Origin: a bacterium | GTDB lineage: Bacteria; UBA8248 | Assembly: GCA_965221165.1 (NCBI GenBank) | Contig: CBDCRP010000003.1 | Span: 288,001-352,000, forward strand | DNA length: 64,000 nt | Reading direction: 5' to 3' | Shown here: piece by piece, positions 47,904 to 51,242 of the stretch | How the letters are laid out: each line of letters starts with the position of its first letter | Position numbering within the stretch: the stretch's first letter is position 1 | The notes under the pieces: generated by a model | Database searches by the model: none | The model's input: the letters and a program-made list of their open reading frames with translations, nothing else | Told to the model about the DNA's origin: nothing | Translations under genes and position numbers: made by a program

Positions 47904-48689
47904 TTATTCAAAAGACCAGTGAATACGCCTATACTCCTCCGGAGTCGGCAAGCATGGGTTTTCCCTGAACTGAATCACCCTTTCGAGAAAAACATCCACC
48001 TCCTCAGGCTCTAAAAGCGCATCCATCTCACCTCTTAAAGAGTTGTCACGATTACCCAAGCTGTCTTCCAGGCGCTTGATATCCTTCACCTGCTCCTCGG
48101 GCAGGGAAATTCCCGAGTAATCCCAGATGACGGTTCGCAGCTTCGGCTCGGAATGAAACGTGAGGCCATGGTCAATTCCCCAGACGCGACCGTCTTCGGA
48201 CTTGAAGCAATGCCCTCCCTTGCGATCCGTGTTGTTCACCATGATGTCGAAAGCCGCCAGCAACAATAACTCCGGGCGCTCCTCCTCCCGGAGCGTGAAA
48301 TAGTTCGATTTCCCGTCATAAGGCACGCACAACTGCATGGAACCCTCGCCATGCGGGCCTTCGCGAATCACCGTCGGGGGAACGAGATGCCATCCCAAAT
48401 GGTGGCTCACCAAAAAAGAGCATCTCTCCCGGAAATGAAGCGTCCCGTAAGGAAAATCCCAAAGGGGCCTCTCCCCGCTCGCCGGCTTGTATATCCCCCA
48501 AAACTGAAAATCCCCAGCACCCATCTTGACGGCGAACGTATAGTTCGAGCCTTGCGGCACCAGCTCGCCGTCCAGAATTTTTGAATTCAGAAGGAGGTTT
48601 TCGATTTCCTCTGGTTCGAACCGATACGCTTGCGATTCCGGCGGATCCACAATTTCCGGGCCTCTACGAGGTGAAGATTTCCGGGCCAC
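47904..48689 (-). CDS. SCO1664-family protein (PI3/PI4-kinase-like)
   Basis: GSNYTF, IYKPASGERPLWDFP.GTL, VPPTVIREGPHGEGSMQ, NNTDRKGGH, GIDHGLTF and KLRTVIW motifs. Confidence 0.88.
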   Translation of the reverse strand: MARKSSPRRGPEIVDPPESQAYRFEPEEIENLLLNSKILDGELVPQGSNYTFAVKMGAGDFQFWGIYKPASGERPLWDFPYGTLHFRERCSFLVSHHLGWHLVPPTVIREGPHGEGSMQLCVPYDGKSNYFTLREEERPELLLLAAFDIMVNNTDRKGGHCFKSEDGRVWGIDHGLTFHSEPKLRTVIWDYSGISLPEEQVKDIKRLEDSLGNRDNSLRGEMDALLEPEEVDVFLERVIQFRENPCLPTPEEYRRIHWSFE

Positions 48690-48721
48690 GAGATTTTCCT
48701 GTCGAATAAGATGGCAGCGAT

Positions 48722-49297
48722 TTAATGATGAAAATGCCCGTTCGTATTGGGGTCGACCTTGCCGGTGGCCACCATGGCATGACGGGAGAGCGCATCCGTC
48801 CCCCGCCCGGACGAGCATTCATTCAGGCTTTGGGTAATGAATTCATCCATCTGCGTATGCGCGAGATTCACTTGCAACGCGGCGGGGCCGATAGCTTCTT
48901 CTTCGAATTCTTCTTCTGAAGGCTCCTCCTCCGTGGCAACCTCATCGCGCTCATCATAAAAAAAGACCGTAACGCGACCCTTACCCGGACCATGCGCCAG
49001 CCCCAAACGACTTACCTTGAACTCGATCGACCCCCCGGAACTCACCGGAGCGGAATCCGCCTCGCCAATGTCCGGAAAATCCGCCTCCTCCTCCACGCGC
49101 CCTTCTTCTCCCTTCGCTTCGGCCATCTTCTTCATCGCCATCGAAAGGCCGTAGACCTGTTCTTTTTCCAGCCAAAGCGTGGCGGCCGCCTTCGAGGGGC
49201 AATCGATCAGAATGCGAAAAATCCTTTTCCCGGCAACGCCAATCGCTTCTGTTTGAATTTTTCCGACTTCGCCGAAATTATATTTTGCAGAATCCAT
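48722..49297 (-). CDS. DUF3090 family protein
   Basis: EAIGVAGKRIFRI, LWLEKEQV, EFKVSRLGL, SSGR and a C-terminal DPNTNGH; directly upstream of the SCO1664-like gene. Confidence 0.75.
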   Translation of the reverse strand: MDSAKYNFGEVGKIQTEAIGVAGKRIFRILIDCPSKAAATLWLEKEQVYGLSMAMKKMAEAKGEEGRVEEEADFPDIGEADSAPVSSGGSIEFKVSRLGLAHGPGKGRVTVFFYDERDEVATEEEPSEEEFEEEAIGPAALQVNLAHTQMDEFITQSLNECSSGRGTDALSRHAMVATGKVDPNTNGHFHH

Positions 49298-49483
49298 GTG
49301 AGATATAAAACTCCGCGATGCGAATAAGAAACATCTCTTGAAAGATATACCATAAACGGATGTCCCACCCTTGTCTATTCAATTTTCCCTCGCCATCGCT
49401 TTCGGTTTCGCTGATGAGAAATTGCGTTTATAATCCCGCAAACAGCCCGCACCACATTAACCTATGGCCCGAGAATACAGCGC

Positions 49484-49645
49484 ATGGCGAAAAAAAATCC
49501 CCGCAAACCCGCCGCCGTCAAACACGGCTTGCTGGAGTATCTGCTCTTGAGCGTTCTCGTGCTCGTCGTCGTCGTTACGGCATGGACGCTCTACGACAAC
49601 GGAATCATCGACACGTTCATGGATATCATCAAAGGCAGCCCCTGA
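49484..49645 (+). CDS. Small Flp-pilin-like membrane peptide (53 aa, below the ORF-track cutoff)
   Basis: Read manually: MAKKNPRKPAAVKHGLLEYLLLSVLVLVVVVTAWTLYDNGIIDTFMDIIKGSP. Basic leader, GLLEY and a hydrophobic helix; a TATAAT lies upstream near 49428. Confidence 0.55.
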   Translation: MAKKNPRKPAAVKHGLLEYLLLSVLVLVVVVTAWTLYDNGIIDTFMDIIKGSP

Positions 49646-49648
49646 ATT

Positions 49649-50269
49649 CTACCCGCCGGACAACCGCGCTTCCTCTTCTGCGAGGTCCGCAGCCCCCGCC
49701 GCACCCTCGAGCGCCTCATCCAGGCGAACGCCCAGACCCAGGGCCACACGGTTGATGAAATTAAAATAGGCCGTCACGGACACCAACTCGACGATGGCGG
49801 CGTCATCGAGCCCCGCCTTTCTTAATTCTTCCACGTCGGACCTATTCATATCACTCGGCGAGGTCGTCAGCTTTCGGGAAAATTCGAGCATCGCCCGCTC
49901 GCGATTCGTGAGGTCAGCACTCTCAGGCTCTCGCTTGAGCGCCTTTGCGCGATCGTCATCGCCCGACGCCTGACGGAGAAACTCCCCGTGGCTGGTGGTT
50001 CAATAAAAACAATCGTTTTCCTTCGATACCGCGGTAGCGATGAATTCGCGCTCGGCTTTCGTCAGATTCTCCTCCGTCTGCATCAGGGTGAGGTAGAGCC
50101 GGCGATGCGCGCGCATGATCTCGGGCCGGTTCCCGAACGGGCGCGAGATGTTGACGATATAACCAAGCGCTTTGAGATTGGCGTCATAGGTCTGCTTCAC
50201 GATTCCCGTAGCCTCCTCCACGGGAACCGTATATACCCAGGCGGGCGCCTTGTCGGCATCATTCATCAA
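49649..50269 (-). CDS. AhpD/carboxymuconolactone decarboxylase-like peroxidase-related selenoprotein (CxxU)
   Basis: ORFs 50000-50269 and 49649-49891 are in the same frame and separated only by TGA at 50002-50000: EREFIATAVSKENDCFY-U-TTSHGEFLRQ...RERAMLEFSRKLT...YFNFINRVALGLG. This matches the AhpD ExxAxxVSxxNxCxxCxxxH motif. Confidence 0.88.
49973..49989 (-). promoter_or_regulatory. Putative bacterial SECIS element
   Basis: ACGGGGA-GTT-TCTCCGT is a 7-bp stem (one G.U pair) with a G-containing apical loop, starting at +11 after the UGA. Confidence 0.7.
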
Positions 50270-50435
50270 TCCACGTTTCTCCCATAAATTCGACTCACCA
50301 AAGGCGAAGCATCAAGTCTCCATACCATGGATCCAGGGCAAACAAAATCGGAGTGCGAAAAGCGGAAACCCGCTACACAGCTTCGGGTGAAAAATGGTAG
50401 CCTCCATCACATCGTAAACCAACAGAGGACGCTCA

Positions 50436-51242
50436 TTGGCTCGGCTCATATCCAAAACGATACACACTCCCGACGGCCCGCTCGCCTATACGGAAGCGGG
50501 GTCACTCGATAAAGATCCCCTCCTCTTCGTTCATGGAGGCTTCGGGGCGGCGAACCACTGGCTCAAGAACCAGGCCTTCTTCGCCGCGCACTACCGCACC
50601 CTGGCGGTCGACCTCCCCGCCTTCGGCGAAAGCTACCTGCCGCCGAAACCACACACGGCCGCTTCGGTCACCGGGGGCATCGGGCGTCTGCTCGACGGGC
50701 TGGGAATCGGGGAGTGCGCATGCGTGGCCTTTTCTTTCGGCGCTACGATGAGCGTGACGTATTGCCAGGAAAACGCCTCCCGGTTCAGGAAACTCGTTTT
50801 GCTGGGACCGGGGGGGCTCGGGCTCACGGGCGACGTCAAACTAGGGGATGAGCGCCGCGTCACCAGAGAGATGAGTCCCGAGGAAAAACACGAGGTATTC
50901 GTTCACAACCAAAAGGCGCTGATGTTCAAAAAACCGGAGTGCGCCGATGAAGCGTATCTCCTCCAGGCCTGGGCGAATCTCAAGAATTCGCGAATGAACA
51001 TCTACGCCATGAACCGCGAACCCTACTTGCCGGATTTGCTGCCGGCGTGTTCCATGCCCTTGCTCATATTGTGGGGGGATGCCGACGTAATCGCCCACCC
51101 GACGCCCGAGGAACGCCGGAACGCTTGCCAAAAAGCCGCCCCCCATGCAGAACTGGATATTATTCCGGACGCCGGCCACATGGCCCAATGGGAACAACCC
51201 GACGTTTTCAACGAACGTGTATGGAAATTCTTGAGGTCATAA
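50436..51242 (+). CDS. Alpha/beta hydrolase
   Basis: FVHGGFG, DLPAFGES, AFSFGA, WGDAD and AGHMAQWEQP motifs. Confidence 0.88.
   Translation: MARLISKTIHTPDGPLAYTEAGSLDKDPLLFVHGGFGAANHWLKNQAFFAAHYRTLAVDLPAFGESYLPPKPHTAASVTGGIGRLLDGLGIGECACVAFSFGATMSVTYCQENASRFRKLVLLGPGGLGLTGDVKLGDERRVTREMSPEEKHEVFVHNQKALMFKKPECADEAYLLQAWANLKNSRMNIYAMNREPYLPDLLPACSMPLLILWGDADVIAHPTPEERRNACQKAAPHAELDIIPDAGHMAQWEQPDVFNERVWKFLRS

Follow-up and report, generated by a model that had tools for sequence, protein, structure and literature searches.

The window analysed here, a 64,000-nucleotide stretch of bacterial DNA, carries on its reverse strand (49649-50269) a single frame of 206 codons and a TAG, in which, by reading-frame translation, the lone internal stop is a TGA. 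The TGA is codon 90 (50002-50000) and lies within the sequence C-F-Y-[TGA]-T-T-S-H. The gene and the features around it are as follows.

49649..50266, reverse strand: gene of an AhpD-like (TIGR01926, peroxidase-related enzyme) selenoprotein, 205 aa from ATG 50266 or 206 aa from TTG 50269, with the stop TAG at 49651-49649
50000..50002, reverse strand: in-frame TGA, predicted to be read as Sec90 (TTG numbering), the second CxxU position, aligned to the second Cys of solved AhpD-like structures
49988..50047, reverse strand: codons of the predicted catalytic helix pair, with Glu75, Cys87, Tyr89, Sec90, and His94 at the AhpD proton-relay positions, from homolog conservation and the relay given in PMC3141380
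49968..49992, reverse strand: bacterial SECIS-type hairpin (candidate), with a 7-bp upper stem (49989-49973), a GUU loop (49982-49980), and a 3-bp lower stem past a 2-nt bulge
50279..50283, reverse strand: Shine-Dalgarno-like GGGAG before the start, seen in the sequence
49484-49645, forward strand: unlisted 53-aa ORF with one hydrophobic stretch, ending 3 nt from the selenoprotein stop; relatives are 45-94% identical
47904-49297, reverse strand: DUF3090 (PF11290) and SCO1664-family (TIGR03843, over the cut-off) gene pair, conserved beside the site across the family

The two pieces of the open-reading-frame track, of 89 aa (50000-50269) and 80 aa (49649-49891), lie in the same frame, as the sequence-only reading had claimed when it took them for one gene interrupted solely by the TGA at the second Cys of a CxxC motif. 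Its further statement that the conserved His and the fold continue past the TGA without another stop also agrees with what is found, the frame being open to the TAG and His94 being kept. The proposed length of about 206 aa holds if translation begins at TTG 50269; the likelier start is the ATG at 50266, giving 205 aa, because all five close orthologs begin at the equivalent ATG and none of them has the preceding TTG. The GGGAG motif, a putative Shine-Dalgarno sequence, is likewise present upstream in all five. A scan for promoters and terminators gave counts no higher than the shuffle level, and two antisense ORFs (49988-50287 and 49360-49755), neither with a Pfam match, were rejected as shadows.

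A contig from run X1 has zero differences from 49973-50567; X1 may be the source sample, and the agreement is not independent. In the same run, contigs of two strains about 12-13% apart both break at the 29 bases 49973-50001, which cover the hairpin, suggesting that these bases are identical between the two strains.

Family and predicted fold

The read-through protein scores 160 bits against TIGR01926 (cut-off 81.8), covering model positions 2-175 of 178, and is also over the cut-offs of TIGR00778 and Pfam CMD. With NF041238 (AhpD_rel_CFYUT), a (seleno)protein family, it shares the CFYUT motif of that family's name; it is not a member, because its score of 91.2 bits is below the cut-off of 175 and only positions 145-345 of the 357 in the model are covered. 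The AlphaFold2 model, built from a 97-sequence alignment with Cys standing in for Sec, is an all-helical AhpD fold with a pLDDT of 96.3, and its best structural match is 6K40, D. radiodurans DR1765 (E 3.4e-12, rmsd 1.4). The Glu, Cys, Cys/Sec, His relay sits on a helix pair in this predicted fold. Among 96 full-length database homologs, the relay residues are strongly represented (Glu75 in 91, Cys87 in 89, Tyr89 in 86, and His94 in 92). The gene is a new member of the predicted AhpD-like selenoprotein family (TIGR01926, CxxU).

The 80-aa C-terminal piece is on public record as a protein of its own (NCBI, ENA), in line with the expectation that pipelines would call the gene in fragments; the protein collection has no entry identical to the N-terminal piece of 89 aa. 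Relatives are on record as pieces of 80-152 aa, together with an N-terminal piece whose end lies immediately ahead of the TGA column. According to the review PMC13188914, GenBank and RefSeq do annotate many selenoproteins. Where a gene such as the present one is catalogued as a fragment, the redox capacity and the selenium demand of the lineage are undercounted.

The hairpin and the decoding of TGA

A 7-bp stem with a GUU loop, said in the earlier reading to start 11 nt after the UGA, is found at 49989-49973; its first base, 49989, is the 11th past the TGA, and its loop lies 17 nt from the TGA. The energy is -7.5 kcal/mol for the upper stem and -11.4 kcal/mol with the lower stem (49992-49968). 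The bacterial SECIS model given in a figure legend of PMC13188914 has a loop of 3-9 nt, a stem of 4-16 bp, G in the first two loop positions, a spacing of 16-37 nt, and an energy of at most -7.5 kcal/mol. By our own ungapped script, which is not bSECISearch, the hairpin conforms to this published model: the loop has 3 nt and opens with G, the stem has 7 bp, the spacing is 17 nt, and the energy lies just at -7.5 kcal/mol. The hairpin is no more stable than shuffled sequences (z from -1.04 to -1.06), and a rough ungapped version of the model matches the ends of 5-7% of long ORFs overall, namely 87 where the stop is TGA (1500 tested out of 1816), 52 where it is TAA (out of 1038), and 81 where it is TAG (out of 1096). 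The same version passes 4 of 11 candidate Sec TGA sites and misses the other 7. Taken alone, the hairpin is modest evidence.

The comparison of homologs gives stronger evidence, pointing to synonymous codon choice that preserves the hairpin. It covers 42 of the 65 TGA loci, aligned with near-duplicates and distant paralogs left out. Over these 42 sequences, 87.4% of the stem cells show standard pairing, against 36-63% in slid controls, and the mean number of pairs is 6.12 out of 7, compared to 3.86 expected with the amino acids fixed and the codon usage of the genome. All seven pairs are present in 28 of the 42, and only two pairs in four related sequences. For the window gene itself, genome codon usage and fixed residues would produce all seven pairs with a probability of 0.009. 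Two-sided changes are seen at three pairs, in one sequence each, and the covariation score is not above shuffles (142/500). In the control with Cys forms (n = 5), the single form that could reach seven pairs has four, equal to chance, whereas another has five against 2.86 expected.

The claim that the organism decodes Sec had been tied to the presence of selA, selB, selC, and selD, and a genome lacking the Sec machinery would have spoken against it. Profile searches find all four above their cut-offs, so that the machinery is complete: selA (564 bits) and selB (384) together on contig C3, and selD (330), which itself has an in-frame TGA, and tRNA-Sec (selC, 75.9) on C2. Completeness of the genome is 96.3% and contamination 8.5%; the flanking genes that the locus shares with orthologs in other genomes speak for a native locus. 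In the set of relatives, selB is present in 35 of 41 genomes, the window genome included.

A sequencing error at this codon, or a reassigned code that reads TGA as Trp or Gly throughout the genome, would account for the internal TGA in another manner, and Trp or Gly does occupy column 90 in 10 of the 96 database homologs, perhaps through calls under other codes. The X1 contig is, however, identical at this position, and five other genomes have the same TGA. Release factor RF2 is present and over its cut-off, and TGA, the commonest stop, ends 1816 long ORFs; TGA is therefore a normal stop here. The tRNA-Trp has the anticodon CCA, and TCA occurs in the genome in tRNA-Sec only. We regard error and reassignment as having practically no chance of being correct, in view of the TGA of the five orthologs, the TGA-ended long ORFs, and RF2. 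The database homologs P0010, P0016, and P0075, as well as other alignment rows, have Trp or Gly at the Sec column, and could represent Sec genes that were translated with genetic code 4 or 25.

At column 90, 92 locus rows were aligned, of which 70 are distinct, almost all of them from one phylum and related, so that the counts are not independent. Among these 70 loci, 57 are of the CxxU form, 8 of the UxxU form (TGA in 65/70), and 5 have a Cys codon (TGT/TGC). The full-length database homologs have Cys in 80 cases, Gly in 7, Ser in 5, Trp in 3, and Ala in 1, and the solved homologs carry Cys. The interchange of Cys and TGA expected at this column is seen in the genomic loci. The TGA is kept in all five intact same-genus orthologs, and neither these nor the X1 contig has the Cys codon that would have counted against Sec. 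A quick protein tree, which leaves 53 of 99 inner branches open, groups the nine syntenic orthologs included into one clade (97) and says nothing firm on the number of Sec origins.

The selection test used six orthologs, 82-91% identical to the window copy and without indels, with pooled dN/dS. The ratio is 0.055 for residues 7-89, 0.177 for residues 101-184, and 0.315 for the tail, and dS for residues 91-100 is 0.155 compared to 0.48-0.55 on the flanking sides. Both halves are under purifying selection, which is about 3 times less strict after the UGA than before. Relaxed selection past the UGA had been named as grounds for giving up the claim; the purifying selection found there leaves it unrefuted, with the qualification that this selection is weaker than before the UGA.

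The higher dN/dS after the UGA would also be expected of a nonsense-mutated pseudogene, or of a split AhpD whose halves are made separately, and the same reading could appeal to the loss of the gene in the genus (15 of 22 genomes, see below) and to database entries in which the N-terminal and the C-terminal parts appear as proteins of their own (P0089, P0005, P0168). However, the stop at column 90 is never TAA or TAG in the same 70 loci, and residues 91-102, which lie past the UGA but ahead of any later start, retain both His94 and the frame in all six orthologs. The recorded C-terminal pieces, moreover, begin at differing places (80, 105, 117-152 aa), as arbitrary gene calls do. A pseudogene or split gene is on these grounds very improbable, and the available sequence data make it nearly certain that the TGA would be read as Sec.

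Paralogs, neighbourhood, and loss within the genus

Counting the window gene, contigs C2 and C3 of the genome contain 14 loci of the AhpD/CMD fold in which TGA takes the place of the second Cys; the genome also has two CxxC forms. Two of the 14 are apparently damaged and one has TGA at both positions; the ten paralogs found with the window protein are just 27-29% identical to it. The paralog at C2:914845 seems to lack part of the N-terminal half, and the one at C3:1727810 runs into another stop some 45 codons past the TGA. A hairpin whose GGUC loop is placed 21 nt past the UGA is common to several of the 14. The paralog with two TGA codons is located as follows.

G000:C3:1674074-1674607, forward strand: AhpD-like UxxU paralog (L026), TGA at both CxxC positions

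The UxxU form occurs at 8 distinct loci, which belong to the genus or to a single further genus. A UxxU AhpD is absent from Table 1 of PMC13188914; the supplements of the cited papers and BSepDB may list one, or the window gene. Candidate partners are encoded elsewhere in the genome, with 13 AhpC/TSA-family loci over the cut-off and 5 loci with biotin/lipoyl domains. Seven of 14 AhpC/TSA (peroxiredoxin-family) matches contain one in-frame TGA, and more selenoproteins are likely among these matches, judging by their reading frames.

The window gene is alone on its strand. Divergent upstream are alpha/beta hydrolase, SDR, and flavin-reductase-like genes; convergent downstream is the 53-aa ORF, followed by the DUF3090 and SCO1664-family genes. 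The 53-aa ORF has no Pfam match and may resemble a Flp-type pilin. The site is common to other genera of the family, there without the hydrolase. The scan of the neighbouring ORFs identified no gene for a peroxiredoxin, a thioredoxin, or a lipoyl protein.

Among 22 other genomes of the genus, the gene is intact in 5 and deleted in 15, where the flanks are joined, the TGA region is missing, and the breakpoints differ; of the remaining two, G008 shows one flank only and G017 is split over contigs.

G001, G002, G006, G007, G009-G012, G014-G016, G018-G021 (same-genus genomes): gene deleted between conserved flanks

G006 and G015 additionally lack much of the adjacent hydrolase. The ortholog in G023 (L042, G023:C75) has a frame break after residue 112, due to damage or assembly error, and that in G003 (L039, G003:C181) stops three codons early. 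On the tree of the neighbouring DUF3090, a one-gene tree of 27 rows that omits G017, intact copies are scattered among deleted ones (e.g., the deleted G007 is sister to the intact G022, 100/99), and the loss has therefore happened more than once. The gene is under selection where it is kept, yet appears dispensable in most of the genus, and such dispensability fits the redundancy of 14 AhpD/CMD-fold TGA loci in one genome.

Predicted function and known relatives

SelB-dependent decoding of Sec is established for bacteria. In the present gene, SelB-GTP-Sec-tRNA would bind to the hairpin, 17 nt past the UGA, delivering Sec in competition with RF2. Successful decoding would give the 205-aa all-helical protein, and failure a stump of 88/89 aa without Sec90, His94, and all later helices. 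The second Cys of AhpD is reportedly the His-activated nucleophile (Koshkin et al., 2003). At the corresponding position, the Sec90 selenolate, placed by a Glu75-water-His94 relay, would attack a hydroperoxide or an oxidised partner (e.g., a peroxiredoxin disulfide). Cys87 would then resolve the Sec90 intermediate to a selenenylsulfide, to be re-reduced by a dihydrolipoyl or thioredoxin-type donor. We infer these catalytic steps from Cys homologs, and the label of peroxidase is likewise a prediction from homologs. A chain of this type, NADH-Lpd-DlaT-AhpD-AhpC, is described in PMC12028322. Against such a role, the Cys homolog PA0269 is given in PMC3141380 as a weak peroxidase only. An antioxidant or disulfide-reductase role is nevertheless probable. 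As a whole, a single intact gene for a Sec-containing AhpD-like thiol/selenol oxidoreductase is very likely the correct explanation of the locus.

We have also considered that Sec is right but that the enzyme, instead of being a general antioxidant, reduces particular small molecules, for example as a Bmp8-like dehalogenase or a detoxifier of halogen oxidants, the 14 paralogs having diverged in substrate. One member of the fold is the debrominase Bmp8 (6OHI/6OHJ; E 1.9e-6 by sequence and 3.4e-7 by structure, TM 0.74), fourteen divergent paralogs exceed the needs of simple antioxidant redundancy, and the family's other genera have, upstream, an SDR in divergent orientation together with a flavin-reductase-like gene. 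Selenium is known to serve reductive dehalogenation in the deiodinases. However, the peroxidase-related structures match far better (E of about 1e-11, 28-36% identity) than Bmp8, which at 20% identity ranks under them in the sequence and structure comparison. The scan of the neighbours turned up no gene of halogen metabolism, and there is no shared operon, because the neighbours are on the opposite strand. Such an enzyme is therefore unlikely. Equally doubtful is the broader proposal of a lineage-wide radiation of selenium-containing AhpD-fold reductases with specific substrates, as opposed to redundant peroxidases, some of which, possibly the window gene among them, would dehalogenate or detoxify halogen oxidants. 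If true, it would be a bacterial parallel to the deiodinases on a different fold, and distinct substrates for the paralogs would mean new selenium chemistry.

Returning to the thiol/selenol oxidoreductase, it can be compared with known systems. Bmp8 (6OHI, 6OHJ) belongs to the same fold family (TM 0.74, 20% identity); it is a Cys enzyme according to its PDB entry title (C82A), and no halogenated-pyrrole gene context was identified at the window locus. The relay of mycobacterial AhpD, given in PMC3141380 as Glu118/Cys130/His132/Cys133/His137 (M. tuberculosis), corresponds to Glu75/Cys87/Tyr89/Sec90/His94 of the window protein, as does Glu36/Cys48/Tyr50/Cys51/His55 of P. aeruginosa PA0269 from the same source. 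The identity to mycobacterial AhpD is only 11-12%, with a weak structural E-value; the window gene has no adjacent ahpC, and Sec in place of Cys.

Closer relatives are DR1765 (6K40), Mlr4105 (3C1L), 2OYO, 2PFX, and 2PRR, which have the same fold (rmsd 1.4-2.5, TM 0.80-0.84), 28-36% identity in structural alignments, and a common E...CxYC...H arrangement, with Cys where the window protein has TGA. Among these five, function data were found for DR1765 only, the characterised homolog closest to the window protein, the loss of which leads to greater sensitivity to H2O2, complementation needing the CxxC motif, according to the review PMC8945050.

The closest known system is the catalogued family itself, and the statement of the sequence-only reading that AhpD-like selenoproteins had been described is accurate. 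They appear in the Sargasso Sea study (PMC1088965), 27 sequences of the family were reported in 2005, and "AhpD-like 1" counted 299 sequences in 2008 (PMC2398784). Table 1 of PMC13188914 lists an AhpD-like protein (TIGR01926, CxxU, one Sec) as "predicted with high confidence". Compared to these catalogued selenoproteins (TIGR01926/COG2128), the window protein has the same HMM over the cut-off, the CxxU motif, one Sec, and a SECIS-type hairpin after the UGA, with no defining difference. The window copy has a C-terminal helical extension of about 20 residues, falls within a syntenic clade from a single bacterial family, and counts among 14 TGA-containing AhpD/CMD-fold loci in one genome. The reading is correct but ordinary, a single gene being added to a family known since 2005. 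As this family is listed as predicted only, the clean hairpin, the close solved homologs, and the natural deletion variants make the present gene a convenient first test case.
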